The notes beneath the pieces are model-generated. The model was not told the origin of the DNA. It made no database searches and worked only from the letters and a program-made list of their open reading frames with translations. Made by a program: the position numbers and the translations under genes. Shown here one piece after another: positions 6,401-59,207 of a stretch of 64,000 bases of DNA. The DNA lies in the NCBI GenBank assembly GCA_963827655.1, contig CAWHCF010000020.1:280336-344335 (forward strand), read 5' to 3'. The stretch is from an uncultured Acidobacteriota bacterium. Lineage in GTDB: Bacteria > Acidobacteriota > UBA6911. Within the stretch, counting starts at the first letter, position 1. Each line of letters starts with the position of its first letter.

Positions 6401-6760
6401 GCTCCCGGGCTGTCTGCGGATCTTGCCCTGTCGAGCGACGACATCCAATACCTTCCCGAGTACACCAGGGTCGACGTCACTGTCCACAACCTGGGGAGTG
6501 AGCCGGCCCGGGGGATCTCGGTGACGTTGTACGACGGAGACCGGGAAATTGGCCGCCAGCGAATTCCCGGGATAGAGGCCCCGCTCGGTTTTGATCCGAA
6601 GACCGTGCGGGTAGGTTTCCGTTTTACGCCCGCGCGTGCGAGCCATACATTCAAAGTCGTAGTCGACAGCGCGGCGCCCGAAATCACGAAGCGGAATAAC
6701 ACCATTGTTGTGGAGCGCGCCACCCCGAGCGCTCCGCCCAAGCAGCATGCGACTCCGTGA
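3486..6760 (+). CDS. Large secreted protein: N-terminal galactose-binding-like/CBM domain, helical core, C-terminal CARDB (two frameshifts, ~3880 and ~5305)
   Basis: Signal peptide MQTRWILAIVLAA. FDMGTESSPVADGY..KGYGW and LPNGRYRVAVTLG are typical of YxiM/RGAE-type N-terminal domains. DGSLGGGWGDDVE motif. ADLALS..VTVHNLG..PEITKRNN (CARDB). ORF pieces 3363-3926, 3421-5313 and 5249-6760 join by single indels. Confidence 0.7.
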
Positions 6761-6804
6761 TTCGTTGCGCCTGGCGTATTGATTGTGAAAAGGAGGTGGC
6801 GGGA

Positions 6805-8580
6805 TTGTTGAGCCGAAGAAAGTTTCTCGCGGGAACGGCCGGTGTTTGGGCTGTGCCCGCCCTGGGCCAGCAGAAGACTCGACCGAACGAAGTCGCCGAG
6901 TTCGGCCCGCAACAATCAGGCGAGGCTCAGCTGCTCGACCCGACGGCGCCGTTCGGGTCCGCCGTTGGGCAACCGGGATGGCGCGGTCGCGCGCCCGACG
7001 ATCTGGTCGCCCGCGCGCGCCTGGCGCTGGAAGGGACTCTAACGAACCACATAAGGGATAACGGCCTCCCTTATTTCGATGTCGTCATCAATTACACCAC
7101 CGGCGAGGTGGATCTTCCGTCCAAGGTGACTACCTGGGACCACACCTCGCAGACAGGAAGGAGCGTCAACGCAATCCTCTGCGCCCGGGAAATGACGGAG
7201 GATTGGAAGACCGGCGTGGAGAACGAGCGGAAGATCCGCCGCGTGATGCTCGACGACTTCCGCGAGGACGGCTTCAACTACATGGAAGGCGGCGTGGCCA
7301 TGATGCACGACCAGAACCGCGCGCTTCTTGGGCTGACCGGTTGGTACCGCCACGCCGAAGGCGAGCGGGAGCGCCAGATGCTGAAGGGCTACGGCGACAA
7401 GCTGGTTGCGGCCTTCATTCGGACGGCTCGCAAGCAGGGAGAAGCGTGGGACATGCCGGGCATGTTCTATTCTCCCGAGAAGGGCTTTTATGACGCGGCG
7501 CGCGCTCCCGGCAAGCATGGCCGCACCATCATGCCGCTCATTGAATATGGCCGGACCACGGGTAACTCCGATGCGATCAAGCTGGCGGAGCGATATGCCA
7601 ACCACGTCCTCAGGGTCAGTGACTCCTTCCGCTTCGATGAGGCGGGCAACTTCAAAGATTTTGGCGACGAGGCTCTGCACGTTCATTCGGTGGGGGCTAC
7701 CATCTCCGGTCTCATTCTTCTCGGAACCGAGCTTGGGCGGCGCGATCTGGTGGAACAGGGGCGGGCGCTGTACGAAAACGGGCTGAAGTGGATCGGAAAC
7801 GAATTCGGCTGGATTCCGGAATCGAACCCGAACTCTCCGGTCAATCGCCGCCGGCGCATGCTGCGACAGACTACCTGCGAAGGGTGCTGCGTCACCGATT
7901 ACATCGAAGCCGCCCTCTATCTGGGGCGGGCCGGATACCCGGAATGCTGGGCCGAGGCCGAACGCTACGTCCGGAATCATCTGTTCGAGAGTCAAATCAC
8001 AACGGTGTCGTGGGTGAAGAGCAAGGGGTCCGTCGATATGCAGCCGCGCGTTCTGGGGAGTTCGTCGGCGCGCAGCTCACCCAACCGGCTGTTCGATCTG
8101 TTTCATCCTTCGGGCCCGATTGGCTGTTGCAGCGAGGCCATGGTGAGGGCGCTGCATCTGGCCTGGAAGCATGGCCTGGAGGAGATTCAGGGCGCGGTTT
8201 GGGTTAACCTCTTGTTCGACCGCGATACCCCCTTTGCGAAGCTCGAGACCGGTCTTCCGTCGAAAGGGCAGGTGCGGGTGACGATGAAGCGAGACGGCGA
8301 CCTGTACATCCGGGTGCCGGACTGGGCGCGCCCGACCATTTCATACCAGCCGGCGGAGATTGCAGCCTCGGCCGCATGGAAGGGGCCGTTTCAGCGGCTT
8401 TCGGCGTTAAAGAAAGGACAAACGGTCGAAATGAACTTTCGCCTTCTCCGTTCGAGCCGTGAGTGGTTGCACTCGATTATGGGGATCACCTACAGGTCCG
8501 AGTGGCTGGGAGACACGGTGGTTTCGATCTCGCCTCGCGGCAACTGTTTTCCCTTGTACGAGAGGACGTACCTGCTGTGA
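6805..8580 (+). CDS. Tat-exported GH127/GH146-like (beta-L-arabinofuranosidase-like) protein
   Basis: AGGAGG RBS; SRRKFL Tat motif. HVHS, TCEGCC..D, ERYVRNHLFESQ, GCC and LYIRVPDWA match the GH127 Zn/Cys architecture. Confidence 0.65.
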   Translation: MLSRRKFLAGTAGVWAVPALGQQKTRPNEVAEFGPQQSGEAQLLDPTAPFGSAVGQPGWRGRAPDDLVARARLALEGTLTNHIRDNGLPYFDVVINYTTGEVDLPSKVTTWDHTSQTGRSVNAILCAREMTEDWKTGVENERKIRRVMLDDFREDGFNYMEGGVAMMHDQNRALLGLTGWYRHAEGERERQMLKGYGDKLVAAFIRTARKQGEAWDMPGMFYSPEKGFYDAARAPGKHGRTIMPLIEYGRTTGNSDAIKLAERYANHVLRVSDSFRFDEAGNFKDFGDEALHVHSVGATISGLILLGTELGRRDLVEQGRALYENGLKWIGNEFGWIPESNPNSPVNRRRRMLRQTTCEGCCVTDYIEAALYLGRAGYPECWAEAERYVRNHLFESQITTVSWVKSKGSVDMQPRVLGSSSARSSPNRLFDLFHPSGPIGCCSEAMVRALHLAWKHGLEEIQGAVWVNLLFDRDTPFAKLETGLPSKGQVRVTMKRDGDLYIRVPDWARPTISYQPAEIAASAAWKGPFQRLSALKKGQTVEMNFRLLRSSREWLHSIMGITYRSEWLGDTVVSISPRGNCFPLYERTYLL

Positions 8581-11159
8581 TCACACGCCGGACTTTTCTG
8601 GAAGTGCCTCTGGTCTGGACCGCAGGCCGGTGGCTCTCGCCGGCGGCTCAGACCACCGAAGGCAAATTCACTCTGGTTGATTTCGCCCCGCATGCGACCG
8701 ACGGAGTATTGCCGCGCGACATTCAGACCCGCGGCTGGTTCGAGGGCAGGGTCGAGGGCTTGCCGAACCTGCGGGGAGGGGAAGAGCGGCTCGCCGGCGT
8801 CCCGTTTCGACTTGTGGACTCCGCCGCGCGCCAGCGTATTCTGGTGCTGGGAGGGAAAAGCCGCAGAGCGTCGATTCCTCTGGGCAAAGCCTGCCACTAC
8901 GTCTGCGTGGCCCATTTCTGCGATCGGCACCCGGACGACACCGAAGGCCCCTTCGGTTCCGAAAACCCCCGGTCGGAGTTCGAACCGGTAGCGCAGCGGC
9001 TGGCTTCGTACACGCTCGTCTTCGAGGACGGCACGCGGCACGAACAGGCGATCCGGCGGCGCTACGAAATCAATCCGCCGGGAATGGATCCCTCCCACGT
9101 GCCGGCCGCGGCCCTCCCCGCTTATGAACCCGATTTCATTGGACTGGACGCAGCGCTCGGATCGGCTCTCGAGTGGGCTTACGCGCAAACCTCGGTCTCG
9201 CGCGAGCGGCCTCGCGGTCCCGTGATCTGGGTCTACGCTCTCGGCAATCCGCATGCGGACAAGATTGTACGATCCCTGGACCTGGAAGCAGCGGGCCAGG
9301 ATCTGTTAGGGATCTGCGCGATGACCCTCTTTCATCGTCCTGAACATCCGCTGCAGCGCGCCCCCTTGCGCAGGTTTGGGATCCAGTTGACAGGCGCGTC
9401 CGAGGACTGGCGCAAGCAGTGGCAGATCTCGGTTGACCTGGGAGTGGTCGCGCGAGTGTATCCGGCCCCCGAATTCAACACGCGCGAGTGGCTCGAAAAT
9501 CCCTACCAGGGTCTCGGTGAGCCGGCGCCGGACTTTTCCAAGACAAACCGGCTGATTGCCGAAGTCACGGCCTCTCCGGCGTCCACTCTTACTTTGGAAG
9601 ACAAGCTTGCCGGGAAGCGTTTCTCCTACGATCTGGCGGATGCTCTTCAACCGGAGGTCCGCGTCCTGGAGCCTGCGGCTGCCTGGGTGCACTGCAGAAT
9701 TGTCGATAAGGAAACCGGGAAACCATGCGCCGCGCGCATCAGCTTCCGTGGTCCGTCGGGCCGCTACATTGCTCCTTACGGTCATCCGGAAGACATCAAT
9801 ACGGGATGGATGCAGAACACCGGACCGGACGTGAAGATTGGCGGCGCCTCGTATGCGTATGTCGACGGGAACTGTCAGGTCGAGCTTCCGCCGGGCGAGG
9901 TCTACGTCGAGTTGTCGAAGGGCTTTGAGTTCGCTCCCTTGCGCAGACAATTAACCATCGCACCCGGGCAGCGGGAGATCGAGCTTTCAATTTCACGGGC
10001 GCTGCACAGCGGCCGCGATGGATGGGTAACCGCCGACACCCATGTGCACATCGGATCCCCTGAACTTCTGGTGCTGGAGGGGGCCGCCGAGGGACTCAAC
10101 CTGGTGAATCTGCTGGCCGCGCAATGGGGACGGCACTTCACCAATTTCGCCGATCCCCCCGGCCGTTTTTCGGGGAGCACTGCCGAGACGACGGTATGGG
10201 TCGGGTCGGAGAATCGCAATCACTTTCTCGGACATATCGGCTTGCTCGGCCTTAAGACGCGCGTTCTTCCCTTTTCCGACGCGGGGCCGCCCGTCGCCTA
10301 CTTCGGTTCGCCGTTGACGGCGAGCCTGGCCGATTGGGCCGACGCCTGCCGAAGTCAGGGTGGCGTGACGGTCGGAGTACACTTCCCGATTCCGAATGGC
10401 GAGACCGCGGCCGATGTCGTCCTGGGCAAGCTCGATGCCGCCGAAATCCGCTATGATCGCGGTTTCGCTTCGCTCGGTGTGACCGAGTACTATCGCTACC
10501 TGAACTGCGGGTTCCGACTTGCGGCCGTGGGGGGCACCGACAAGATGTTCCCGACCCGCGCGGTAGGCGCCGTGCGAACCTACGCGCGGCTGGACCGGGG
10601 CGAGCCCTTCAGTTTCGAAGCCTGGGCCAGAGCCCTGCGCGCGGGACGAACCTTCGCTACGGCCGGACCCCTGCTCTTCCTCAAAGTCGACGGAGTGGAA
10701 CCCGGCGGGGTGATCGAAGTCAAAGGCCGCGGCCAACTCGAAGTCCACGCGATGGCTGAGTCCGTTTATCCGCTGGGCGAGATCGAGATTGTTCAGAATG
10801 GGCGTGTCGTTGCATCGGGCTCAAACCCGCTGCGCGCGAAAGTCCCGGTCAAAGGCGCAGGCTGGATAGCCGCGCGTTGTTCCTCGCAGAAGCGACTCTC
10901 TTATGGAATGCGCAACATCGGAGCTCACACGTCGCCGGTCTACCTCACCGAGGATGGGAAAGGTTGTTTCTCGATTCCCGCCGCGGAATACATGCTGAGA
11001 CTCATCGAAGGGGCCGTTCTGTGGGTCGACACACTCGCGGTACGTTCGAGCCGTGAAGATCTGGCTCGCATCAAGAAGCTGTTTGCCGAAGCTCGAACTC
11101 TCTTGGGATCCCGGCTCGGACCCCATACACACCCGCACAATCCAGGAATCAAACCATGA
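8577..11159 (+). CDS. CehA/McbA-family PHP metallohydrolase with Tat signal
   Basis: GTG overlaps the upstream TGA; TRRTFL; GWVTADTHVH, GHIGLLG, YRYLNCGFRLAAVGGTD, AHTSPVY. Confidence 0.8.
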   Translation: MITRRTFLEVPLVWTAGRWLSPAAQTTEGKFTLVDFAPHATDGVLPRDIQTRGWFEGRVEGLPNLRGGEERLAGVPFRLVDSAARQRILVLGGKSRRASIPLGKACHYVCVAHFCDRHPDDTEGPFGSENPRSEFEPVAQRLASYTLVFEDGTRHEQAIRRRYEINPPGMDPSHVPAAALPAYEPDFIGLDAALGSALEWAYAQTSVSRERPRGPVIWVYALGNPHADKIVRSLDLEAAGQDLLGICAMTLFHRPEHPLQRAPLRRFGIQLTGASEDWRKQWQISVDLGVVARVYPAPEFNTREWLENPYQGLGEPAPDFSKTNRLIAEVTASPASTLTLEDKLAGKRFSYDLADALQPEVRVLEPAAAWVHCRIVDKETGKPCAARISFRGPSGRYIAPYGHPEDINTGWMQNTGPDVKIGGASYAYVDGNCQVELPPGEVYVELSKGFEFAPLRRQLTIAPGQREIELSISRALHSGRDGWVTADTHVHIGSPELLVLEGAAEGLNLVNLLAAQWGRHFTNFADPPGRFSGSTAETTVWVGSENRNHFLGHIGLLGLKTRVLPFSDAGPPVAYFGSPLTASLADWADACRSQGGVTVGVHFPIPNGETAADVVLGKLDAAEIRYDRGFASLGVTEYYRYLNCGFRLAAVGGTDKMFPTRAVGAVRTYARLDRGEPFSFEAWARALRAGRTFATAGPLLFLKVDGVEPGGVIEVKGRGQLEVHAMAESVYPLGEIEIVQNGRVVASGSNPLRAKVPVKGAGWIAARCSSQKRLSYGMRNIGAHTSPVYLTEDGKGCFSIPAAEYMLRLIEGAVLWVDTLAVRSSREDLARIKKLFAEARTLLGSRLGPHTHPHNPGIKP

Positions 11160-45259: not shown

Positions 45260-47542
45260 ATGAAATCCAAAGAGCGCTCCTCGTTTTAATCCTGATGGTC
45301 GCCGGCGCCGTGGCCTGGACGCAAACGGAATCCCGGCACTACATGTCCGCAGGCACGCGGCGGATGGCGGAACGGCTGGAAGAGCTGGCTCGAACCGCAA
45401 TACCTCCCAATCCCCCGATGACCTCCGAAAGGATAAAAAACTCTCGTCGTCAGATCGTCGAGAGTCGCGATCCGCTAAACGCCTTTGAGTTGCAGATGGA
45501 GCTGGGATACGAACTTCTCCTGGACGGCAGGAGCGAAGAAGCCGCCCATGAATTGCGTGAGGCGGAGCAGCTTCTCGTGAGGCAAAAACTTGCCGTCAAA
45601 CCGGAACTGACTCGTGTCCTGGGCCAGCTTCTGGCTGTTTCGTATCTTCGCCTGGGGGAGCAAGAGAACTGCGTTGCGCAGCACAACAGTGAGTCCTGTT
45701 ACCTCCCGATTCGCGCCTCCGGGATTCACAAGAAAGAGCGTGGTTCACGAGCGGCGATCGAAGTCTTGATGAAAGGGAATCCTGGAGACCTGAGCTCGCG
45801 CTGGCTGCTCAATCTTGCGCATATGACTCTTGGAGAATATCCCCAGCGGGTTCCTCGACAGTGGTTGCTGCCTCCGGCGATTTTCGACTCCGACTATCGT
45901 ATCGAGCGATTCCAGGATGTTGCTCCGCAGGTCGGACTGGATCTTCTGGGTTTGGCCGGCGGCGAGCATCATGGAGGATTTCGACGCCGATGGCGACCTG
46001 GATATCATGGCTTCGTCGTGTGGCTTCAGGGATCAGCTACGCTATTTCCGGAACAATGGTGACGGAACCTTCACCGAGCGCACGGCGGAAGCCGGCCTGA
46101 CAGGCGAGGTCGGGGGACTCAACATCACACATGGCGATTACAATAACGACGGCTATCCGGATGTGCTGGTTCTGCGCGGAGGGTGGCTTTTTGAGCAGGG
46201 AGAGCATCCGAATTCACTGCTGCGCAACAATCGTGATGGCACTTTTAATGATGTGACAGAAGAGGCCGGCTTGCTCACTTTTCATCCGACCCAAGCTGCA
46301 GCCTGGGGCGACTTCGACAACGATGGTTGGGTCGATATTTTCGTAGGCAATGAGTCCGACGGCAAAAAAACCCGCCCTTGCCAGCTTTTTCATAACAACG
46401 GCGACGGCACGTTTACCGAATGCGCCGACGGACTGGGAATCGCCGCGGTTGGCTACGTCAAGGGTGTGGTCTGGGGCGACTACAACAACGACGGCTGGCT
46501 GGATCTCTACGTCTCGCGGATGGGCGGCACCAATATTCTCTACAGGAATGAAGGGCCGAAGCGGAACCCGGGATCGACGGAGAATCTGGCATGGAAGGGT
46601 GGAAGTTCACAGATGTGACGAATCAGGCCGGCGTCGGGAAGCCGATTCAGAGTTTTGCCACCTGGTTCTGGGACTACAACAACGACGGCTGGCTGGACAT
46701 CTTCGTTGCCGGATTCACTCCACAATCGACCAGGTCTCTGGATGATGTCGTTGCCATCTATTCAGGGCGGCCCAGCGCCGGCCGAACGCTCCCGGCTCTT
46801 CCGCAACAATCGCGACGGGACTTTCAGCGATGTCACGCGCGCGGCAAGAATCGATCGAGTGTTGCAAATCATGGGCGCAAATTTCGGCGATCTCGATAAC
46901 GATGGGTTTCAGGATTGCTATCTGGGAACAGGCGAGCCGGATCTGCGGGTCCTTATTCCAAACCGCATGTTCCGTAACGCGGGCGGCCATTACTTTCAAG
47001 ATGTCACTACGTCAGGTGGATTCGGCCACTTGCAAAAGGGTCACGGCGTCTCGTTTGGAGATATCGATAACGACGGGGATCAAGATATTTATGAGGTCAT
47101 CGGAGGGTGGTACTCCGGAGATGTCTTCCAGAATGTTCTGTTTGAAAATCCTGGTAACCGCAATCACTGGCTCACGCTGAGACTCGAGGGAGTCCGCTCG
47201 AACCGCGCGGCAATTGGAGCGCGGATCAAGGTGACTGTGGATACGGCGGAAGGTAAGCGCGAGATTCACTCAACGGTGTCCACCGGGGGAAGTTTCGGTT
47301 CATCGAGCCTGCAGCAGGAAATCGGATTGGGGCGAGCCGATTCGCTTCGGATGATAGAAATCACCTGGCCTGCGACCGGAAGGACCGACTTGATCAGGAA
47401 TGTCGCGATGGATCAGGTGTTCAGGATTCAAGAAGGACAACCGGTTCCGATTCCTGTCAAGGTGAAACGGTTCAAGCTCGCCGGGGCCGAGCCACAAACC
47501 GGATCAGAGCGTCCTCCTCATCACCACCCTCCCTACCAATAG
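45260..47542 (+). CDS. CRTAC1 family FG-GAP/ASPIC-UnbV protein (about four frameshifts)
   Basis: YLRLGEQENC, WLLNLAHMTLG, DYNNDG repeats, MGANFGDLDNDG, GFGHLQKGHGV and SNRAAIGARIKV..GGSFG..EIGLG. Confidence 0.85.
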
Positions 47543-50500
47543 TATTTCAGCCCGAATTGAATCTCTCGCGCAGGTCCGGCGGCGAAGATCTTGCCAAACG
47601 TTGCCGGCGCCAGCACGGTGGCGGATGGGGCGCCGAAATTGGGATGGTTGAAGGCGTTAAAGAGCTCCGTGCGAAATTGCAGAGACTGCCGCTCGCCTAG
47701 TTTAAAGCTCTTGTGAATGGCGAGATCGGAATTGATGATTCCATCGGTGTTTAGAATGTTCGCGCCGGCATTGCCGAAGGCGCCGATATCGTTGGGCACG
47801 AAACAATTGGTATCGAACCACAGGTCCACCGTGCGTTCACCCGACGGCAGGTTTCCGTTGCAGACCCGGTTGGGACGATCCAGGCCGGATCCGGTGCCGG
47901 CGCGATTGGCTCCCGTGACCGCCCGGACCCAGAATCCCGACTGAAGCGAAGTGACTCCCGAGAACTGCCAGCCTCCCAGAAACCAGTCCGCCGGACCTGT
48001 GACATTCAAGAATCGCTTTCCATTGCCGATTGGAAGGCCGTAGATGAAGCTGAACGATAAGCGATGACGGACGTCGAAAACAGCATTTGCCTTCTCCGCG
48101 TTGGTGTTGAGCTCATCCTGGACGTGGACGATGCCTCCAGGGCCCCCTTCCGCGGCGGCATTCTCGATGTTGTGCGACCAGGTGTAAGCCGCCAGAAACG
48201 ATAGATCACCCGAAAAGCGTTTTTCCGCCTTCAGCTGGAGCGAATGGTAACTCGAGGCCGCGCGCGAGTCGGCGATCAGAAACTGGCCCCATAGCGGAAA
48301 GGGCCGCCGAGCCTGAATGTCCCCGGTCCCGGGCCGGGCCGCATTGAGGTTTCTCAACGCATCCAGGTGCGTCCCTTTGTTTCCTGCATACGCGACGTCG
48401 AGCGCCAGATTCTGGGTCAACTGTCTCTGCAGGCTGAAACTCCACTGTTGCACATAACCATCCACGAAGTCGTTTGAAAGCCCCAAGCCGCCCTGAGGAG
48501 CTGTCGAGATCGCCGCCGCCGGGAATGGATTGTTCAAGCTCAGGGTTGGAATAACCGGATCCGCGAAGTATCGCTCCTGAACGAAATGCGGAGGAACGAA
48601 GCTGAGCAGGAACTGGGAATTGAAGATCGCCAGGTTGTAGAAGATCCCGTACCCGCCGCGTAGGGTTGTACTCGCGCTTCCGAAGGGACGCCACGCAAAC
48701 CCAGGCGAGGTCCCCAATTGTTCGTGTCGGGAAAGTAGAGGGCTCTTTTGGCCCGGCCCGTGAAACCAGCCTGTTCCGCCTCGGGCGTGTTCGCGGACAC
48801 GAGCTTTCCTTCGGGAAAGACGCTCTTGAACTCCTTCGCCCCCGTGGTGAACGTGGCCAGAGTATCAAAAAAGTCATCAACCCAGGGCTCGCGGTATTCG
48901 TAACGGATGCCCAGGTTCAAGGTAAAGTTCGTCGTCACTTTCCAGTCGTCGTTGAAATAGAAACTATAGAATCTCGACCGCGCGTCTTGCCGCGTCTCGC
49001 CCAGAGCTCTTTCTGCCTGATTCGGGAATCCCAGCATCAGCTCCGGCAATCCATTCTGCCCTCTGGCATAGACGTTCCGGAAAATGTAGTAGCCACGGTG
49101 ACGATTCTCCGAGCGATCGTCGTTGATTCCGATATAACGGAAGTCCCCCCCCACTTTGAAAGTATGGGTTCCGCGAATGATCGTGAGATCATCGGTAACC
49201 TGGTGGACATTCTCGTGTCGTTGAACCGGCGCATAAAGCCGGTCGCCCACACTCGGAAGCCCCTGGACTGAGAACAACGGAACTCCATCCAACACCGCGG
49301 GAGGATTCGCCCCGGGGATTCCGAACGAGGCCGTCGTGCCGGCTTCTCCGAGCGTGGGAGAGGTGGCGATGTTCTTCTCCCGATTGTATCCGTATCGGAT
49401 CACGTTCAATAACACGGGACTGAAGACGTGAGTCTCGTTGAGCGCAATATTCTGCGCACGATAATCCACCGTCTCGCCGAAGCCGGGGACGTTAGTGCCG
49501 CCGCCGATTGGATTCAGTCTGTCGACGGTGTTTATGACGTATCGGACAAACAATCGATCGTTGGCTGAAAAATCGTGATCGATGCGAGCCATCGCGGAGT
49601 CCTCGTCTTGCCGGAGAGGATCGCTCGCGACATAGTTTCGCGCTAGTCCCGGCAGAATCGGGTCCGGGTAAAAAGACAGGACTTTCCGGGCCGTCGGATG
49701 GATGCGGCTATCCGGAATGATATTCCCGGGAAAGGGTTGCCCGGTCATGGGGTCGAAGATCTGGGTCGGCGTGGGCAAGCTCAACCATTCCGAGAAATTG
49801 CCGCTCTTCATCAAGGGCGTCGGCATCGTGTCGGTTACGGACTGTCCCCGCCGCATGCGCAGGCCTTCGTAATTGACGGCGAAGAAGGTCCGATCCCTAT
49901 AGATCGGCCCCCTCAACGAACCGCCAAATTGATTGCGCTTGAATTCAGGCGGCGCTCCGGGATCGAAGAAATTCCGCGCATCCAGCTCATCATTTCGAAT
50001 GAACTCGAAGAGGACTCCGTGAAAGTCATTAGTGCCCGACTGAGTGGTCAGGTTGATCTGGGCGTTGCCCAGGACGCCGTACTCCGCCGAGTATGTTGAT
50101 TGAATCATCTTGAACTCCCTGACGGCATCGACGGAGGGGAGGACCGAAACGTTCCCGGCTTGGAAACCCCTGGTTTCGATTCCATCCACCAGGAAGGCGT
50201 TATTGGCGTTCCGGCCACCTGCGTGGAACGGCGTGCTCATGGGATTGGCCCAGGTGCCACCCGCGTGCCCACCTGACCCCAGGGTCGTGGAAGTTCCGGG
50301 AGCCAATGTCGCCAGGAGATTAAACCGCCGTTCGTTTAAAGGAAGCTCGACAATGCTATGGTGCTCGACGACAGAACCCACGGTCGCATCCTGCGTGTTC
50401 AAGAGCGGAGCAATCGCTACCACTTCCACTTTTTCTGATACCTCTCCGACCTCCAGTTTGATGTCCACCCGGCCCTGGCTTTCGACACGTAAGACGACTC

Positions 50501-50780
50501 CCCGGACTTCGGCCCTCTTGAAACCCGACAGTTCTGCTATGACGACGTACTCGCCCAGCGGCAGGTAAGGAATTTCATAATACCCGCTCTCATTTGTTAC
50601 GGTGTTTTGTCTCAGGTTTGTCTCTACATTCGTGACCGTGATCGTCACACCCGGTATGATCGCCCCTGTCGGGTCGGTAACGGTTCCCAGAATCGTTCCC
50701 GTAATCCGCTGTCCAAAAACGTTTGGAACCAACGAAAGGTAGAAAATTGCCGGCAATATGGAGAACCTTGGAAGTCTCAT
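47533..50780 (-). CDS. TonB-dependent receptor, Oar-like (frameshift ~48710)
   Basis: GTILGTVTDPTGAIIPG, ELPLNER, YSAEYG, SGTNDFHG, NQFGG, DDWKV..LNLGIRYE and C-terminal REIQFGLKYYW. Confidence 0.92.
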
Positions 50781-51152
50781 ACGTTCCTCGCGGTGGCAGT
50801 ATTGAAAGATCTTTGACAGTTGGTAGCACGTACCAACTCTATGGGGGGAGGGAGCAAGCACGCCAGGGATGTGACCACAATCTATCAGCGGTGACTGGCT
50901 GTCAAGCCTAAAGTTTGCGCGAGTCTTTGGCCGCGCAACCGGCCAGGCTGACGCCGATAGTTATCAACGCTTGTGAGCGATGGGGCCTCACGGGCGAGCC
51001 TTCGGCCGTGGTTAACGGGGACGCGAGAAGAACTTTCGAGAAGCATGCCGCTCTGTCTGAATCGCAGGAAGCTACCGAAGTGGAACTACACAGTCGCTCC
51101 AGATCTGTGACATCATTACCGCGCGAGCTCGGAAACGCGAAGACACCCTCCC

Positions 51153-51824
51153 ATGGACGTGGCTGTATATACGGCGATTACAGATGGCAAAGATCAACTG
51201 CGCGACGATCAAGTCACCGAAGGAGCTGCGTTCATCGCGTATCTGGACGGCGATTATCCAACCACTCTGTGGCAAATCCGGCAAGCCTGTAGCCTGTTCC
51301 GCCATCCGAATCGGAACGCCAAGATTCACAAGGCCCTGGCGCACCAATACCTGGAGGACGCGTCCTGTTCCATCTGGATCGACGGGAATATTGCACTGAG
51401 GGTACCGGCTGCTCTTCTCGTGTCTCAATTCCTGGCAGGTTACGATCTCGCGATGTTCTCACACCCGGAGCGGGATTGCCTGTATGAAGAGGCACGGTTT
51501 TCGTGCCTCTGGGAGGTGGCCGATGTTAACGAGATGCAGGAACAGGTGGAAAACTATCTAAGGCGAGGCTTCCCAGCCAGGACCGGCCTGGTTGAGTGCG
51601 GGGTTATCGTCCGTCGTCATACGCCACAAGTTGAACGGTTTAATGAGATCTGGTGGTCAGAGATATGCCGTGGCTCTTATCAAGACCAGTTGAGTGTGAT
51701 GGTTGCCGCCCGGAAGGCCGGTGTGGAAATAAATCGCATCCCGGGCAGCATTCAGAACGTTCCCCACCTGTCGCCGCGGCGCCGGGGTAATCAATTCGTA
51801 GATTGCCGGAACCATTTGAAATGA
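51153..51824 (+). CDS. DUF616 (TOD1/MUCI70-like) glycosyltransferase-domain protein
   Basis: VYTAITDGKD, KALAHQYL..SIWIDGNI, HPERDCLYEEA, CGVIVRRH, WWSEI..DQLS. Confidence 0.85.
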   Translation: MDVAVYTAITDGKDQLRDDQVTEGAAFIAYLDGDYPTTLWQIRQACSLFRHPNRNAKIHKALAHQYLEDASCSIWIDGNIALRVPAALLVSQFLAGYDLAMFSHPERDCLYEEARFSCLWEVADVNEMQEQVENYLRRGFPARTGLVECGVIVRRHTPQVERFNEIWWSEICRGSYQDQLSVMVAARKAGVEINRIPGSIQNVPHLSPRRRGNQFVDCRNHLK

Positions 51825-51850
51825 CAGGTAACGTGGCGGCAGCGTCTATG

Positions 51851-53852
51851 TTAAAAACCGGAATCAACGGCACTCCGAGACCGCGCCCATCTCACCTTTT
51901 CGACCGCGTCTGCGAGAAAGCTCTCGATCTCTCGGACAGCATGGATGTCTTCAAATAGACGGGCCGAACGGTCCCGGATGGCCGCTCGTATCCTGGACTG
52001 GTGATTCTTGTCAGTGCCGAGGCGGACGGCGATGTCGATATACTCGGAACCACATGAGGCGACACAGTCAGGTATTCCGAGGATCTGGTAGAGGGCATAG
52101 GTTATGCGTCCGCGCAGGAAGGGAGAGGGGAGCGTGACAATGGGTGTGCCCACCGTGAACGCTTCATAACTGGTTCGCCCCCCGCCGAAATCGGGCGGAA
52201 GGAGTAATACATCAACCAGAGACGTCAACTGCATGTAGTCGTCATAGCTGAGGCGAGGAATGATCTTCACCCGATCGGTTACATCCGGTATTGCCCTGGA
52301 GAGTCTGCGGAGCAACAGGGTATCCCAATGCGGCACGTGTCCGCCGGGTAAAGCGATTATTCCTTCAGGATCGCTCCTGAGAATTCCGGCGAGAATGTCG
52401 TCGAACTCAGGGTGGAGCTTGAAGAGGCTCTGAAGGCAGCCGTATATGTGGATGCCGGCCGCGAGGCCGTAGTCGGCTCGGGTCCTGGTAAATTCCGGGA
52501 GAGGAGGCCGATAGACATAGACTCCCAGCGACTTCAACCGCACGAGCTCTTCCGTGTAATGCTGCTCTGCTCCAGCTGATTCCAGGAGATCACTCGAAAT
52601 ATAGTAGTCGATCGTGCGCAATCCACTGGTGACAGGATGTCCCCAGGTTGTGCATTGAACCGGAGCCAGGCGCGACGACGCCAGGGCGTAGACGCCCGGG
52701 TCCATTCCGATGTCCGTATAGAACAGGAGGTCCATGCGCTCGGCCGCAATTTGTTCGCGCGCGGCCGACAGAGCGCCGGGAAGCTGAACGTAGGATTCGC
52801 AGGCGTTCTTTAGAAACTCGGCGACGTAGTCCTGTTGAGGCGAAAGTGAGAAGACATGAACATGAAACCGGGTGCGGTCCAGGTTCGCAACCAGGCCGCG
52901 CCAGAGTACACCGACCGAATGGTCATTCAGATGGCTGGAGACAAATCCTACACGAATCCTGCCGTCTGAGACCCGAGGGCCATGGGAAGAAGTAAGATCT
53001 CTCGAAGCCCCGGCACACAGGTCGCCCAGCAACTCGTAAACCTCCCGGTCATTCTCTCCTTGGTAAGCCAGGAAGAATGTGACGGGCATGTCTTCCACAA
53101 GCGGATCCAGCTGGAAGCCCTGATTCAAAAGGCTCTTGATGCCGGCAATCAGGCGATTACGGTAGTGATACTTCTCCTCGGTGGATGAGCAGATGATCGG
53201 TAACACGGTTGCCGACAGATAACGGAGCGTGTTAGTCGGTGCGATGGCGAGAGCGCGCTCATAAAACGCTATGGCGTCAGCCGGCTCGCTCTTGAACTTT
53301 GAAATGGTGCCAAGATAAGTATATGCGTTGGCCAGCCGAGGATCGCGATCGATGGCCTTCAAGAAGCTTGCGTAGGCTTCGTCCAGCCTGGAAAGCTTGT
53401 AGTAGGCATCCCCAGTGACATAGTGGAGTTCTGCATCTTCGGAGTCGAGGTCCATCGCGCGGCCATAACAGGCCAGTGCCTCGTCGAGTGAGCCCTTGTG
53501 CCTCAAGAGATCACCCAGGTTCTTCAACGCGGCGAAATATCCGGGATCCAGTTCGATCGCGCGCTGGAGACTCGCGAGCGCATCGTCGTAGCGTTCGAGC
53601 GATCCGTATGCGACGGCCAGGTCGTTATGAAAATCGGCTTTCATGGGCTCGATGGAGATTGCGCGGGCAAAGCGATCGATGGCCGTCTCGGGCGTTACCC
53701 TCCATGTATTCAATCAAACCGAGCAGGTGCCAGGCCGAGGAATCAGACGGGTCGTCATCGAGGAGGGTTTGCAGGTGGGATCGCGCACGTTCCGGTTGAC
53801 TGGCCTGAAAGCAAGCCAGGGCGGATGCGAATCGATTCTTGCTATCGGACAC
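51851..53852 (-). CDS. TPR-containing O-GlcNAc transferase/SPINDLY-like glycosyltransferase (GT41) (frameshift ~53690)
   Basis: N-terminal TPRs; RIRVGFVS..HSVG, DLLFYTDIGM, RLAPVQCTTWGHPVTSG..IDY, QSLFKLHP and GGRTSYEAF..GTPIVT..RGR. Confidence 0.9.
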
Positions 53853-53899
53853 TTGACCCTCGTTCCGGTCGCCGTTCCCATGCCCTTGGCACGATGATT

Positions 53900-54571
53900 T
53901 TATGGTAGAGGAACTGGATTCTGGCCTGTCCACTTTTCCCAGAAGAGCTTCTTCTCTTTCTGATACAGCTCGTCAAGGCAGCGTCCCCCTGACTCGTGAT
54001 GCGCATATATATTGGTGGTGCCTAAAACCAGATCGGCTTTGTGACAGGACAGACAGAAATCGAGGTCATACCAATTAAAAGTGAAGCGCTCATCGAAGCG
54101 GACTGTCCCGATCTGCCTCATGTCGACGGCGAGAAACAGGCCGTCCAGAACTAAACAACGATGAGGCACCGGCCCATAGGAGGACCAGTAACTCTGGCCG
54201 GACGGCAGAGTATGTTCGACCGCTCCAGACAGATGCTCGGCAGGCAGGTCGCACCAGGTGAAGTACTCGGCGTCCCGCTGGAATGCGAACTGTGAGGAAC
54301 CGACCAGACCGGATACGGCGAAATTATCAGCAGCGTTAAGGAGCTTCTCACGCAGTAAAAGATCGTTGATCTCTACATCGTCATGCACAAAAGCAAGAAT
54401 CAAGTCCTGGCCCGCGTACTGCTCCAGGAAAGGATTGTAACTTGCCGGCAGCCCGGCCCGGTTGTTCTCGACGAAACATGATTCGGAGAAGCCCAGTCGG
54501 GTTAGAGACTGGTATAGCCGGGAGGTTTCTTTCTTCTGCCGGGTGCAGCAAACAACCAGGATGTTGGTCAT
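53900..54571 (-). CDS. GT-A fold glycosyltransferase (GT2-like)
   Basis: ASYN, AFVHDDV, GLVG, LDGLFLAV, FDERFTFNWYDLDFCL, HESGG and FWEKW. Confidence 0.85.
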   Translation of the reverse strand: MTNILVVCCTRQKKETSRLYQSLTRLGFSESCFVENNRAGLPASYNPFLEQYAGQDLILAFVHDDVEINDLLLREKLLNAADNFAVSGLVGSSQFAFQRDAEYFTWCDLPAEHLSGAVEHTLPSGQSYWSSYGPVPHRCLVLDGLFLAVDMRQIGTVRFDERFTFNWYDLDFCLSCHKADLVLGTTNIYAHHESGGRCLDELYQKEKKLFWEKWTGQNPVPLP

Positions 54572-54629
54572 CGATTTGGCGACATTCTTGGTGTCTCTTC
54601 GTGTCTTTGAGTCTTAGCGGTATACAAAA

Positions 54630-55625
54630 CTACAACTCGACCACGTGCACGAACCACTGCAGTCCGTCGGCGTCGCATTCATATGCGTGTTGAGCGCGGC
54701 ACTCCGCACCCTCATAAACCGAAACCCAGCCGCGAAGGTCCCCCGGAGGGACTCCTTGGCCCGAGAGGATTTGAACCAGATCCTGATTAAACGTATGAAC
54801 GTTTGCCTGAGTCTCACTATCACTGCGCCCCAGTTTTCCATAGTAGTCGGCAATGAAGAAGAGTCGCCCCGGCAGGATCGACCGAAGGTAACGCAGAAAG
54901 TTAATCGCTTCAGCGTTCCCGTTCCCAAAGAACTCATTCATGATGCTGCCGCCATAGACTGCCTGGATTCGATTCAATTCGGCTTCTGGCAGCAGAGTGT
55001 GCAGGTTCCGGCAGTCACCGCAGACAATCGTCGCGCGGGAAGAGAAGCCAGAGCTGCTCAGCCTGGCATTCGCGAGCCGGCACATGGCGGGGCTGAGATC
55101 GACACCCCATCCCACAAACGCCGGGGTCGAGGCGCACAGGTACTCCAGCAACATGCCCGGACCGCATCCAAGATCAAGCAGAGACGCCGCGTTCCATTGC
55201 GAAACAATGTCCGCAATCGTCGCGACTCCGTCTCGGGGGGTGGCAGCGAAGGCTTCGCCGAAAAGGTCATCGTTTACTAGAGCCTTGTCCGCTCGCTCGC
55301 TGTGAAGAATCTGATCCAGGTTTTGAAAAAGCGGGCCATACGCTCCGATGAACTTATCGATGTGGAAACCGAAATCGCCATATGGCTGACAGGTTGGGTT
55401 CACGACATAACACCCGGGAGAAACTGTGTCCAGGATGTCGCTATACGAATACAGGTAGTGCAAGAGATGTTCGAGAACATCGGAGTTCAACCCGAGCCGG
55501 GCCGAAACCTCGGCCGCAGTGGCTGGCCGTGAGAGAAGGGCCAAAATACCGAGGCGATGCAAATGGTAAACGACGGCGCCGAGGTAGTAGCCCTTGACCA
55601 GATCATGCGGTCCTGAAACGCGCAA
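54630..55625 (-). CDS. Class I SAM-dependent methyltransferase with N-terminal wHTH (ApyS-like by context)
   Basis: LLDLGCGPG, GVDLSPAM and VCGD; lies in the MNIO operon. Confidence 0.85.
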   Translation of the reverse strand: MRVSGPHDLVKGYYLGAVVYHLHRLGILALLSRPATAAEVSARLGLNSDVLEHLLHYLYSYSDILDTVSPGCYVVNPTCQPYGDFGFHIDKFIGAYGPLFQNLDQILHSERADKALVNDDLFGEAFAATPRDGVATIADIVSQWNAASLLDLGCGPGMLLEYLCASTPAFVGWGVDLSPAMCRLANARLSSSGFSSRATIVCGDCRNLHTLLPEAELNRIQAVYGGSIMNEFFGNGNAEAINFLRYLRSILPGRLFFIADYYGKLGRSDSETQANVHTFNQDLVQILSGQGVPPGDLRGWVSVYEGAECRAQHAYECDADGLQWFVHVVEL

Positions 55626-55656
55626 CTTGCGGAGTCCTACTGATTACAGAGGTATG

Positions 55657-56515
55657 CTACGTCGCTCGACACAGACCGCTCTGGAATGCAGTCACGAAAA
55701 AAGACCGGACTTCCTCGGGCGTGATCTCCGGTTTTGCGGCCGCTGTCAAGCGCCGGATTATTTCGCCAATTGTGCGACTTCCGGTGATCTCCTGCAGGAC
55801 CGTTAAAACGCCGTAATCAAGCCGAAAGAGACGAACCGACACGCTGCCGGGGTTCCCCCAGTAGCCCCAAATACCGGCGTCTTTGCAAAGACGACTGGAA
55901 TCGAATGCGGACTTTGCAATCTGGTTGGCGATCTCGAGCGGATCGTGCTCGAAAACGCCCACGCGGAAGACGCCGTTCATACGAGGTACCAATTCGTCCA
56001 GATCACCCAAGGCCCGCTCCGGCGGCGTCTCGTCGGTCGATCCAGCGCCGGACGCTGGCGGTTGCGTTCCGGCCGATTCGGCTCGCTTCCCACATGAGCC
56101 ATTCGTGATTCAGGATATCCTCGAGACCCGGTGCGCTATCAGGGGGAAGAGAGGCCAGATATGTCTTCAGAAATGCGACGAAGGCCCGGACCTTTTCTCT
56201 CTTCCCGGGATTTGCAGCCCGCATGCGCTGATGAGTCTCGCGATACGCGCTAAAGACCGGTAGCTCCAGGTCATAGTGGCGGAGCAGAGTATGGGTTTGC
56301 GCCATTTCCGCAATGACGTCGTGATTCTGTATCTTTGTGATAAATCCGGCAAGATATCGGATCCGCCTCAGATCGAGGCTGAGAAAACCACGCTGTTCCT
56401 GTTCATCCAGAGCGTATTCTTTCAGGGTCTCTTCCGTGTTCGAAGCCAACGCATCCAGGAATCGCGGATCCAGTATACACCGGGCTATGATCGAGTTGAC
56501 GGTCGCGGTGCTCAT
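55657..56515 (-). CDS. MNIO partner protein with probable C-terminal RRE (ApyI-like by context) (frameshift ~56030)
   Basis: ATG overlaps the MNIO stop. The C-terminal piece LFRLDYGVLTVLQEITGSRTIGEII..VRSFF..GL has a PqqD/RRE-like pattern. Confidence 0.7.
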
Positions 56516-57381
56516 CCCGGCATGCCTCTTTGAACCACACGGCGCACTCGATCCACCTCATCCACAAGAACACTCTCAACCATGGCCGAGGGCCAGTTAT
56601 ATTCCAGGGTCACTGCCCGGACCTTTCCTCGCTCCAGCACCAGCGGCAACATCTGAAGGATTGGATCAGGAACCGGGCTGGCATGATTGTCCCAGTGAAT
56701 ATCGGCCTGGCAGTCCACGCCCGAGACATGCACTTCGACGACTCGCTCGAGCGGATACTTCAAGAGTTCCCGGCGCGGATCGAAATCGAAATTTCTTGAC
56801 GTTATGTAGAGGTGCGTGAGGTCGAGGAGCAGATTAGCGGAAGTCTGTCCACAGATCGAGCTTATGAAATCGGCTTGCGACATCGTCGTTCCCGGCGGGA
56901 GGAAATAAAGAGGCGGATTTTCGAGAAGCAGGGGGATGCCGAAATGACGCTGGCACGCGTCTACCGATTCCACCACCATGGTGATGGTTTCCTCGTTCAT
57001 CGGCGGGCTTACTGTATACCCGATATTATAGGGCTCTCCAGGGGCGTACTCGTCCCAGTGGCTGGAAGCGCCCGGCTTCTCGGCTGTAATAAAAGAAAGA
57101 TGTTCCCCCAGCCAAGGCGTCTCGGTCCGGTCAATCCACTCGAATATCTGCTGAATAGTTGTAAGGGGCGGGCGCGCTGAGCCGGCGATCGACATACTGG
57201 CGCAATGCAGGATGAACGGCTTGTATTGTTTCAAGTCGATGATTGAAGGGTCATGACGCAAGAGTTCAAACGGGACTTCCAGGTAATCAGCTGAGGCAGG
57301 GTTCCTTTTGATGAGTGACTCGGCCCCCCGATTGTAGGCCAGGCCAATAAGCGGCGAACTTTCTGCAAGAGGCGCCCACAC
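56512..57381 (-). CDS. DUF692 multinuclear non-heme iron oxidative enzyme (MNIO)
   Basis: DYLEVPFE, ILHCASMS, WLGEHLSF, LLLENP, LLLDLTHL, EVHVSG, DNH and VTLEY. Confidence 0.93.
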   Translation of the reverse strand: MWAPLAESSPLIGLAYNRGAESLIKRNPASADYLEVPFELLRHDPSIIDLKQYKPFILHCASMSIAGSARPPLTTIQQIFEWIDRTETPWLGEHLSFITAEKPGASSHWDEYAPGEPYNIGYTVSPPMNEETITMVVESVDACQRHFGIPLLLENPPLYFLPPGTTMSQADFISSICGQTSANLLLDLTHLYITSRNFDFDPRRELLKYPLERVVEVHVSGVDCQADIHWDNHASPVPDPILQMLPLVLERGKVRAVTLEYNWPSAMVESVLVDEVDRVRRVVQRGMPG

Positions 57382-57497
57382 GGCTTACGTCCCCAGGGTT
57401 TCTGACAGCGGCCGGTCGGGCCGTCGAGAATTTCGCGTAATGGTGGAAAAGTCCGACTGACGATCCGTCCGGTTCGAACGAATCACGGAAGACAACA

Positions 57498-57650
57498 CCA
57501 GCAAGCCACGAACTCTTTGCGGCAGGTAACCGTCAGGCCGCGGGCTCTCTCGTTCTAGTGGATATCCGGTTGAAGCGGCAGTGGCTTGCTGGCTATCTCG
57601 CTCGAGTAGTTCCTGCCCGAGCTTCGGAAGGCATCGAGTCGGCGAACTAC
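57498..57650. promoter_or_regulatory. Structured intergenic RNA between precursor and MNIO
   Basis: Perfect 12-bp inverted repeat CCAGCAAGCCAC (57498-57509) / GTGGCTTGCTGG (57581-57592). Second stem GTAGTTC (57606-57612) / GAACTAC (57644-57650). Confidence 0.5.
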
Positions 57651-57672
57651 AATTCCATGAACCTGTACAGCG

Positions 57673-57865
57673 CTAGTCGATTGTCGTTCCGCCGGCAAGC
57701 CTTTTGATCAGGGGAAGCTTCGTGACTGGGACTTCGGCGAAACCAATTCTCAACTTCCCGCGCTCCACGCATTTCTTCAACTTCGCCTGATCGGCTGGCG
57801 ACAAGGACAGCATTATCGTTTCTTCAGTTACTGATCATCTCACCAGGCTTCTTCGGTTCAGCCAT
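57673..57865 (-). CDS. Putative RiPP precursor peptide, about 63 aa (apparent indel near 57835); absent from ORF track
   Basis: GAAGGGA RBS then MAEPKKPGE..., continuing in another frame VTEETIMLSLSPADQAKLKKCVERGKLRIGFAEVPVTKLPLIKRLAGGTTID*. The intact sub-ORF 57813-57673 is 46 aa. Confidence 0.75.
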
Positions 57866-58034
57866 TTTTCTATCCCTTCTGACTTGAATTTGGAAAAAAC
57901 AGCGGTTTCATGCCATCGATTGGAGAGGGTGGTTAAAGAAAAATCCCTGCTTTGGGGGGAGAAAGGATTTGCCCAACCTTGAAATCCTGGGCACCTGCCC
58001 GATTCGAGGCATAGTACATCGTCGGTCAAAAGTG

Positions 58035-59207
58035 TCAAACAAAAATCCTTCTACCCCGGCATTCAAGCTTGAACGTGAGTGTCCCGGGCCTGGTTCTGAG
58101 GGGTCCGTCAGCTCTGTGAATACAGTGCCGTCGGAAGGCTACCGCGGGAACGGGAACAGCCCGTTGACTGTCTCGAGACGCAGATCCGCGCCCGTTTGCC
58201 GCTTTCCTGAGCCAGGACAGGTCTTTGCCGATCAGGAGCTCCGTCATTTTGGCGTGGTGAGTGTTCTTCATCGCAATCGCCTGGGTTTCAAAATTGAACC
58301 TTGAGGCGAGCGTTGCGATTTCACTGGTGTTGTCATAGGTCAGCAGGATGTCGCCCCTGACATTTGCCAGGAGTGCGAAGAGGCTTGGATGATCAACCTG
58401 CCAGTGCGAGTACAGGCGCTTGGATGCAACCGTATATGGCGGGTCGATAAAGAAGGCTGCGGTCTCGTCATCAGCGTATCGTCGAATGACTTCGAAGGCG
58501 TCTCCTTCGATAAAGGAGAACCGTTCACGAACGCTGGCGATTTCCCGAATCCGTCGTGCCAGGGTCTCCGGATACCAGCGGGAACTGAGTCCGCGCCCGT
58601 TCTCGCCCGCCTTCACCAGTCCAGCCCCTTCCGCCATGATTCCACCTCTTTGGACACGGTTTCTGAGGATGACGGTAAAGGCGCGCTCACGCTGGGTCAC
58701 GGGCTCTTTGCGCAAAATGGCTGTGACGTTTTCTCGCGTTAACTCAAAATTCAGGATTCTGTCTTCAAGCCACTTTGCCTGGCCGCCGAATATGGTGTGC
58801 CAGACTGCGCCGACATTCGTATCGCGTTCGACTAGCACAGCGTGTTCCGCGAGACCTTCAAAACCGGCGGTCAGTGCGATGACTCCACCGCCGGCAAATG
58901 GTTCGACCAGAATGCCGACACGAGCTGGCCTATGGGTGAGCCAGGAACGGACATAGGGAACCAGCCACGTCTTGCCTCCCGGATAGCGGAAGGGCGAGCG
59001 TTGCGGGACGGAAGCGACGTTGACAGGTTTGCTGATCTCGACATCCTCCGCGGTTCGGTAAGCAACTGCTGGGTCATGTAGCTCGGATTTCTGGTCGAGT
59101 TCGTGGGCGTAGTTCAGGACAGTCCGCGCAAGAGTTTTGGGAACCCGAATTACCGTGGTATTGCCCAGCTTCCACTTGGGCCGAAATGTAGTTGCTGATC
59201 GAGCCAT
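58035..59207 (-). CDS. Dam/D12-class N6-adenine DNA methyltransferase with N-terminal extension (true stop may be earlier)
   Basis: SPFRYPGGKTW, VEPFAGGG, FFIDPPY and ELLI. Confidence 0.9.
   Translation of the reverse strand: MARSATTFRPKWKLGNTTVIRVPKTLARTVLNYAHELDQKSELHDPAVAYRTAEDVEISKPVNVASVPQRSPFRYPGGKTWLVPYVRSWLTHRPARVGILVEPFAGGGVIALTAGFEGLAEHAVLVERDTNVGAVWHTIFGGQAKWLEDRILNFELTRENVTAILRKEPVTQRERAFTVILRNRVQRGGIMAEGAGLVKAGENGRGLSSRWYPETLARRIREIASVRERFSFIEGDAFEVIRRYADDETAAFFIDPPYTVASKRLYSHWQVDHPSLFALLANVRGDILLTYDNTSEIATLASRFNFETQAIAMKNTHHAKMTELLIGKDLSWLRKAANGRGSASRDSQRAVPVPAVAFRRHCIHRADGPLRTRPGTLTFKLECRGRRIFV

Follow-up and report, generated by a model that had tools for sequence, protein, structure and literature searches.

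The apy cluster of Burkholderia thailandensis E264, with ApyA, ApyH, ApyI, ApyS, ApyD and ApyO (PMC11117315), is one of the closest described counterparts of the genes treated here. ApyA precursors share two conserved hallmarks, a C-B-X2-3-G motif, whose Cys is essential for ApyHI, and a C-terminal Asp (PMC11117315). Among the 69 apy biosynthetic gene clusters (BGCs) described in that source, 100% encode an oxidative enzyme that depends on multinuclear non-heme iron (MNIO), 97% a B12-dependent radical S-adenosylmethionine enzyme (B12-rSAM), 93% a methyltransferase and 74% a P450 (i.e., 26% are without P450), and aromatic residues are reported there only where a P450 is present. We report that a 64,000-nt stretch of DNA from an uncultured Acidobacteriota soil bacterium (the window; all coordinates are window positions) carries, between 51153 and 57865, a slightly divergent member of the aminopyruvatide family of peptides synthesized by ribosomes and modified post-translationally (RiPPs) with a minimal A-H-I-S architecture, next to three glycosyltransferase (GT) genes. 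The RiPP family is known; the architecture is new. With somewhat better than even confidence we read the region as two side-by-side modules, a minimal non-aromatic apyA-H-I-S operon and an adjacent autonomous GT module.

Gene identities were derived from Pfam and NCBIfam profile searches of the window proteins. A sequence-only reading of the region had described a co-oriented run of precursor, DUF692, overlapping partner, methyltransferase and GT genes with a convergent DUF616 gene, and had proposed that an H/I/S-like trio and the terminal Asp are kept. Profile matches and coordinates agree with it on both counts: the seven genes lie at the positions it gave, and the Apy models of NCBIfam are the best matches for the MNIO, the partner, the methyltransferase and the precursor. 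The co-oriented run is real and far beyond chance, since the best NCBIfam matches are ApyH, ApyS and the broader ApyA and since the start of the partner gene overlaps the stop of the MNIO gene (56512-56515). Specifically, the MNIO (DUF692, 289 amino acids (aa), 56512..57381, minus strand; PF05114 143 bits) has the ApyH model NF050151 as best match with 362.2 bits (cut-off 400), the next family being BufB with 107, and retains every one of the 61 columns that do not vary in an alignment of 34 sequences. The S-adenosylmethionine-dependent C-methyltransferase (331 aa, 54630..55625, minus strand), which starts 31 nt after apyI, scores 266.7 bits on the ApyS model NF050150 (cut-off 400); the runner-up is a 2-ketoarginine C-methyltransferase model with 57.9 bits, and therefore an alpha-keto-acid substrate fits the ApyS-like enzyme. 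The ApyI-like partner (55657..56515, minus strand) is split into two open reading frames (ORFs), which cover positions 1-134 (56003-56515) and 153-237 (55657-56010) of the 260-position NCBIfam ApyI model with 50.4 and 39.7 bits; the unsplit 285-aa form encoded by L003, a metagenome contig that is 96.7% identical to the window over 4107 nt, reaches 92.6 bits on NF050149 (cut-off 200).

The assembled sequence of the cluster is marred by single-base indels, as seen from comparison with L003 and with Logan contigs of the runs X1, X3, X4 and X15 (the latter an RNA library). Relative to L003 one extra base in the precursor leader (near 57833) breaks the apyA-like gene (57673..57865, minus strand) into a 13-codon ORF (57865-57824) and a 46-aa ORF (57673-57813), and one extra base near 56079-56081 splits apyI into ORFs of 170 aa (56003-56515) and 117 aa (55657-56010). 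Both genes are in frame in L003, as a single 63-aa precursor ORF and a single 285-aa ApyI ORF; the former starts at the position matching 57865, where the precursor start had already been placed. The extra apyI base is also lacking in the X1 contigs and in part of X4. Moreover, a base at 53689/53690 in the GT41 gene is lacking in the X1 and X4 contigs, and without it a 102-aa TPR-bearing ORF (53625-53933) joins the GT41 ORF, which puts the real start near 53852 and gives a protein that matches P0121 (666 aa, 97% identical). The previous gene description was thus right for the seven genes, but the frameshifts in apyI and in the GT41 gene went unmentioned. The most likely source of the frameshifts is faulty assembly or else very recent damage. 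Intact alleles exist in the same population. Outside the cluster, an outer-membrane barrel gene with a carboxypeptidase-regulatory domain (47533-50861, minus strand) consists of two overlapping ORFs that match OMP_b-brl_4 positions 1-444 and 443-838, and this split is of the same frameshift kind as in apyA, apyI and the GT41 gene. Single internal stops or split matches also mark paralogues of a PQQ/EF-hand gene at other places in the genome.

The small ORFs upstream of the MNIOs in the compared loci are of two types, one with an aromatic [WY]x[WY]D tail and a P450 and one non-aromatic and without P450, whose typical tail reads ...V-T-K-L-P-x-x-L-D-N-G-K-L-I-D. Common to both are a terminal Asp and the Cys and Gly belonging to the C-B-X2-3-G motif, and the window precursor, with a K-K-C-V-E-R-G-K motif followed by V-T-K-L-P and a C-terminal T-T-I-D, is of the non-aromatic type and has both published ApyA hallmarks. 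In an alignment of 14 precursors L, C, G and the terminal D never vary. The window tail reads A-G-G-T-T-I-D as against L-D-N-G-K-L-I-D in relatives, and Thr-Thr before the terminal Ile-Asp is not found in the other 12 of the 14. On the NCBIfam model broader_ApyA (NF050152, cut-off 40) the 46-aa window precursor scores 33.6 bits and the full-length L003 precursor, whose additional N-terminal stretch aligns to the leader conserved in relatives, 39.9 bits, just under the cut-off; five tested relatives of the non-aromatic clade score between 48.6 and 63.4 bits and that of L026 scores 34.8. The 290-nt stretch separating precursor and MNIO shows no folding beyond that of its shuffles (z = -0.09).

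At E<=1e-20 the MNIO has 480 relatives, of which five are 77-98% identical (P0002, P0004 and P0005 lie at 77-91%, with P0004 at 89% and P0005 at 77%); identity then drops to 60% or less, and among these more distant relatives is a Streptomyces protein named ApyH by NCBI. Identity to MNIOs of loci with aromatic precursors is 41-46%. The comparison set held 80 metagenome loci and 70 genome loci (150 beside the window), and an IQ-TREE tree was built from 140 MNIO rows, each the best tblastn segment of at least 240 residues without a stop. In this tree the window groups with L003 and L004 (SH-aLRT 99), beside L007 (97), inside a 50-row clade (95), in which 43 rows have non-aromatic precursors and seven are without a precursor call. 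One clade member, L083 (Streptomyces smaragdinus), has an MNIO above the ApyH cut-off (444.6 bits) and a precursor scoring 63.4 bits on broader_ApyA. Taken together, best match and tree placement assign the MNIO to the ApyH lineage; rather than clustering away from ApyH, the outcome named beforehand as damaging, it nests in a non-aromatic sister clade of the ApyH tree. None of 400 other genomes of the phylum, and none of 50 other genomes of the order, yielded an ApyH-like gene, and tblastn of the MNIO against a plasmid collection gave no match. The same genome has a second MNIO gene on contig C4 (5302-6081; L002), ~30% identical to the ApyH-like MNIO and with 143 bits on the ApyH model.

What sets the window cluster apart is its gene content, counted over 78 loci, among them the window, whose flank downstream of the MNIO is 4.8 kb or longer. 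A B12-rSAM gene is present in 75 of them and missing only from the window, L037 and L148, the MNIO of the last being truncated. Seventy loci have both B12-rSAM and ApyS, five have the rSAM only, two (window and L037) ApyS only, and one (L148) neither. The distance from the MNIO end to the apyS start is 890 nt in the window and 910 nt in L037, as compared with >2000 nt in all other such loci with apyS, where relatives carry a ~2-kb gene (Pfam Radical_SAM and B12-binding) between apyI and apyS. No homologue of the B12-rSAM ApyD was found in the window region, nor any match to a P450, and the T-T-I-D tail has no aromatic residues at -2 and -4; the suggestion, made from the letters, that aromatic residues and P450/rSAM enzymes are absent is thus borne out by the gene-content search. 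The missing B12-rSAM is an unusual feature of this cluster, as its clade normally keeps this enzyme, and as the window lineage is nested among rSAM carriers a secondary loss would be the simplest reading. The sequence-only reading had proposed a linear, possibly glycosylated alpha-keto-acid peptide as the product and did not know of one being described. The P450-free, non-aromatic state itself is not new: 26% of the published BGCs are without P450, L083 appears in the RODEO output of PMC11117315 and NCBI has a broader_ApyA model, and therefore P450-free non-aromatic Apy clusters are already known. Our literature search found no study of the non-aromatic Apy branch. L037 (8227-18769), the sole other rSAM-less locus with apyS, is of the aromatic type with the order P450-A-H-I-S, after which come ORFs that match metallopeptidases M12 and M1 weakly. 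Near non-aromatic apy clusters a 2-oxoglutarate-Fe(II) oxygenase gene was seen in three loci, all on the minus strand (L011:6017-6601, L020:8531-9142 and L022:8695-9387). Accessory enzymes clearly vary within the aminopyruvatide family.

By analogy with the B. thailandensis system, ApyHI/ApyS-type chemistry may be proposed for the window cluster. ApyI would present the ~63-aa precursor to ApyH, which by oxidation would make an aminopyruvic acid terminus out of the C-terminal Asp (-30 Da), and ApyS would then C-methylate the beta-carbon (+14 Da), giving a C-terminal 3-amino-2-oxobutanoate on a linear ...Thr-Thr-Ile- peptide, a putative keto-acid warhead directed at cysteine proteases. The B12-rSAM gene that stands between apyI and apyS in nearly all relatives would have been lost, and the GT-A-like and TPR-GT41 enzymes, perhaps together with DUF616, would form an autonomous protein- or glycan-glycosylation module that just happens to be adjacent. 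Aminopyruvate-type chemistry is supported because the Cys/Gly motif, essential in ApyA, and a keto-acid-type methyltransferase are kept. A protease-inhibitor role of the product is a reasonable guess, since cathepsins L and B and papain are inhibited by desmethylaminopyruvatide A at 0.3-0.6 nM, and aminopyruvatide-type keto-acid peptides act on papain-family cysteine proteases as inhibitors in the sub-nanomolar range (PMC13192836). Precursor, MNIO, partner and methyltransferase make up the simplest system in which to ask if ApyHI-type enzymes work on linear peptides, and the cluster bears on how small a keto-acid warhead pathway can be.

Downstream of apyS, on the same strand, are a GT-A-like GT of the Glyco_tranf_2_5 family (223 aa, 53900..54571; PF13712 20.9 bits, under the cut-off of 27, which the 49%-identical homologue P0241 passes with 37.7) and a protein GT with TPR and GT41 (OGT/NGT-like) domains (51851..53852). 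In the window the latter appears as an ORF at 51851-53713 with its N-terminus out of frame owing to the extra base near 53689. It matches PF13844 with 98.9 bits (cut-off 25) and several TPR families N-terminal of the catalytic domain, keeps 59 invariant columns of a 25-sequence alignment and has a close relative, P0122, with 88% identity. The DUF616/TOD1_MUCI70 GT-like gene (51153..51824, plus strand; PF04765 70.7 bits) converges on it.

Several points weigh against the reading of two modules. All four apy proteins stay under their NCBIfam cut-offs (362/400, 92.6/200, 267/400 and 39.9/40), and functional equivalence with Apy is therefore not certified by these scores; B. thailandensis ApyHI, which was active in the host Burkholderia sp. 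FERM BP-3421, did not act unless the P450 cross-link was present (PMC11117315), and we found no published demonstration of ApyHI-type activity on a linear, non-aromatic peptide. The frameshifts may also be real, the extra apyI base being missing in just 3.4 of 11.7 depth units in X4. The remaining points concern the GTs: GT-A and GT41 are on the same strand as the apy genes with spacers of 58 nt (apyS to GT-A) and ~47 nt (GT-A stop to corrected GT41 start), there is no convincing terminator between apyS and GT-A, and the 8.2-Mb genome has one copy each of GT-A, the GT41 catalytic domain and DUF616. Furthermore, GT-A, like ApyH, is absent from the 400 other genomes of the phylum and the 50 of the order, and therefore the whole block looks lineage-specific; and Thr-Thr before Ile-Asp is unique to the window type among the 14 aligned precursors.

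From these last points it could be argued that the GTs belong to the pathway, with TPR-GT41 O-glycosylating Thr-Thr before or after C-terminal processing and GT-A (perhaps also DUF616) extending the sugar, so that the product would be a glycosylated linear peptide. GT41 enzymes act on proteins and peptides through their TPR domain, which also speaks for such a link, as does adjacency of apyS and GT-A in L003 and of GT-A and GT41 in X1 and X4 contigs. We regard this alternative as unlikely. DUF616 is on the opposite strand. When GT-A, TPR-GT41 and DUF616 were searched by tblastn against the 150 loci, GT-A was found in L003 only, TPR-GT41 gave just matches to its TPR region, in L020 and L096, and outside L003 no GT41 catalytic or DUF616 homologue turned up; the 77 other loci whose flank downstream of the MNIO reaches 4.8 kb or more were without a homologue of any of the three. 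All contigs in which the adjacency is preserved (L003; X1 and X4) are >95% identical to the window, and therefore represent the same species and add no independent support. The co-occurrence of GT genes with homologous clusters, on which the proposed link to the peptide depended, is thus lacking in the loci that could be compared. A flank survey of 107 ORFs of at least 150 aa outside the H-to-S core of 28 non-aromatic-clade loci (cut down from 194) found GT domains in two, a MurG-like GT28 (L015) and a GT21/GT2 (L088), which are of different families and do not recur; 2/107 is about the level presumably expected by chance. Of the 50 occurrences of 'glycosyl' in the RODEO output of PMC11117315, the 8 inspected all belong to a P450 hidden Markov model description. 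Complex prediction with the TPR-GT41 alignment (P0121 first) and the 63-aa L003 precursor gave scores of 0.00 and 0.01 against a mark of 0.32, and counts neither for nor against.

The GT genes have relatives that occur together in single proteins. A full HMMER scan gave 1219 relatives of GT-A at E<=1e-3, and among 25 inspected, i.e., P0241 and 24 picked for a length above that of the query, GT-A, TPR and GT41 form one chain in P0242 (51% identical), P0296 and P0352, and GT-A and TPR alone in P0245 and P0354. Such fusions in unrelated proteins indicate a module of its own that would work without apy genes, which argues against the link. GT41 genes are present in 12 of the 50 other order genomes, all without ApyH, with at most 31% identity to the window GT41. 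The GTs are therefore probably neighbours in their own right that stand outside the pathway. That the GT41/GT-A pair (with or without DUF616) was recruited in this lineage to O-glycosylate Thr-Thr, with the sugar in place of the rSAM/P450 decorations, seems quite unlikely to us, and any link of the GTs to the peptide falls in the same low range. If true, no aminopyruvatide-type peptide before this product would have been glycosylated and no RiPP before it matured by an enzyme of the OGT family (GT41), and GT41/GT-A would be a new enzyme family in RiPP tailoring, which the present evidence makes unlikely. One non-aromatic locus, L015, counts on the side of the link, as a MurG-like GT stands there immediately upstream of the precursor, in a tight array of genes on one strand. 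This array (3994-10879, plus strand) comprises two ORFs, a class-III aminotransferase, a 172-aa ORF, the MurG-like GT28 (204.5 bits, cut-off 250) and a 204-aa ORF, ahead of precursor and MNIO, and may be a larger operon with sugar chemistry.

Sequence divergence at the junction between apyS and the GT genes is uneven. GT-A is 92.7% identical at the nucleotide level to L003:3461-4102 (dS 0.25, dN/dS 0.12; synonymous and nonsynonymous substitution rates), as compared with 98.6-98.8% for apyH, apyI and apyS. The X1 contigs have the same divergent GT-A patch, flanked by GT41 sequence with 98-99.6% identity, and contigs of both X1 and X4 have a replaced GT-A/GT41 spacer (joints 53822/53929 and 53851/53930). 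Because GT-A diverges while the apy genes and GT41 on either side stay near-identical, these comparisons suggest allelic replacement of GT-A by recombination. Within the apyS/GT-A spacer there is, moreover, a partial copy (54585..54625, blastn-short) of a dispersed repeat of ~60 nt resembling repetitive extragenic palindromic or miniature inverted-repeat transposable elements (REP/MITE-like), and its presence there further argues against a functional link between apyS and GT-A. The repeat has 181 blastn-short hits (E<1e-3) in the 8.2-Mb genome, further copies at ~12196, 20302 and 26745 of the window, and fuller, palindromic copies in the same spacer of L003. Contig depth at the repeat is 153 in X1, 176 in X4, 21 in X3 and ~1 in X15, and short-read contigs break there.

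A second alternative is that the cluster is a decaying remnant, with real frameshifts in apyA, apyI and the GT41 gene and apyD deleted, and that the strain makes no product. We consider this quite improbable. It would account for three frameshifts within 6.7 kb and a fourth in the neighbouring outer-membrane barrel gene, for insertions that lie outside long homopolymers, for the missing apyD and for the fact that most X4 depth at 56079 is without the deletion. However, apyI is in frame in both L003 and the X1 contig and the precursor is in frame in L003, and other genes of the genome with single internal stops or split matches fit an indel-prone assembly better than targeted decay. Comparison with L003 gives dN/dS values of 0.03 for apyS, 0.08 and 0.48 for the two apyI halves, 0.31 for apyH and 0.10 for apyA, and these low values point to recent purifying selection. 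In addition, contigs of the RNA library X15 cover parts of apyA, apyH, apyI and apyS (as well as of GT41 and DUF616), which shows their presence, not transcription or operon structure.

The weakest alternative, that the MNIO carries out another reaction on the terminal Asp (e.g. beta-hydroxylation only, like PesH) or acts on another residue, such that the product is no aminopyruvate derivative, could draw on the scores under the equivalog cut-off, on the diversity of MNIO chemistry, with PesHI only hydroxylating Asp (10.64898/2026.03.11.711119), and on the biaryl cross-link needed by the studied ApyHI, but is very unlikely given that PesH is <30% identical to ApyH (10.64898/2026.03.11.711119) while the window MNIO is 41-46% identical to MNIOs of the experimentally studied aromatic type, that both the terminal Asp and the Cys/Gly motif are preserved, and that an ApyS-type methyltransferase, which would only be sensible if the keto acid is formed, is retained right after apyI. 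Nitrilobacillin-type chemistry was set aside in view of the <30% identity between PesH and ApyH.

As to the surroundings of the two modules, the precursor gene is preceded by a gene for a Dam-like D12-class N6-adenine DNA methyltransferase with a ~70-aa N-terminal extension (58035-59207, minus strand), at the 3' end of which sits a promoter-like site (58011..58038, minus strand; a consensus match only, 10/12 positions). A scan of the region gave five promoter-like sites against 3.6 expected by chance and nine terminator-like sites against 6.6 expected; only two are suitably located, the promoter-like site at 58038-58011 and, where GT41 stops, a terminator-like one (51878-51858). For the genes from DUF616 up to and including the Dam-like one, G+C content at third codon positions lies 0.5-1.2 standard deviations under the mean of long ORFs of the genome, except for the 46-codon apyA; codon scores are below the mean for all these genes without a step between apy and GT genes, judged against a crude reference ORF set, and composition thus does not tell the readings apart. 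Four 20-kb regions of relatives with an orthologue of the flanking PQQ/EF-hand gene (60-64% identical) share no other gene order with the window, and therefore no island boundaries were drawn.

Compared with known systems, the TPR-GT41 protein resembles bacterial OGT/HMW1C-NGT-like proteins in its N-terminal TPR repeats and GT41 catalytic domain, and a PF13712-type GT-A directly upstream of it recalls the fused P0242, P0296 and P0352; unlike these, the window has two separate genes, beside a RiPP operon. Glycosylated RiPPs such as glycocins also combine a small ribosomal peptide containing Ser/Thr with a nearby GT gene. To our knowledge, known glycosylated RiPPs use GT families other than GT41; papers found to name both GT41 and a RiPP were unrelated and none tied the two together. 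Unlike the GTs dedicated to such RiPPs, those of the window are not conserved with precursor and maturase genes across related clusters. The RiPP genes themselves share with the E264 apy cluster a precursor with C-B-X2-3-G and C-terminal Asp, an MNIO with an overlapping partner gene and an ApyS-type methyltransferase (PMC11117315), and differ from it in having neither P450, nor [WY]x[WY] before the Asp, nor B12-rSAM, and in scores below the cut-offs. Closer still are the non-aromatic broader ApyA clusters, represented by L083 and by metagenome-assembled genomes of Bryobacteraceae/Solibacteraceae (L084, L088 and L149) with the gene order A-H-I-D-S. The window has an MNIO of the same clade, no P450 and the same precursor layout (...C-x3-4-G-K-I/L-x-I/F-x-F-x-E-x-x-V-T-K-L-P ... 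I/V-D), but whereas those clusters keep a B12-rSAM of ~650 aa between apyI and apyS, in the window apyS follows apyI after 31 nt.

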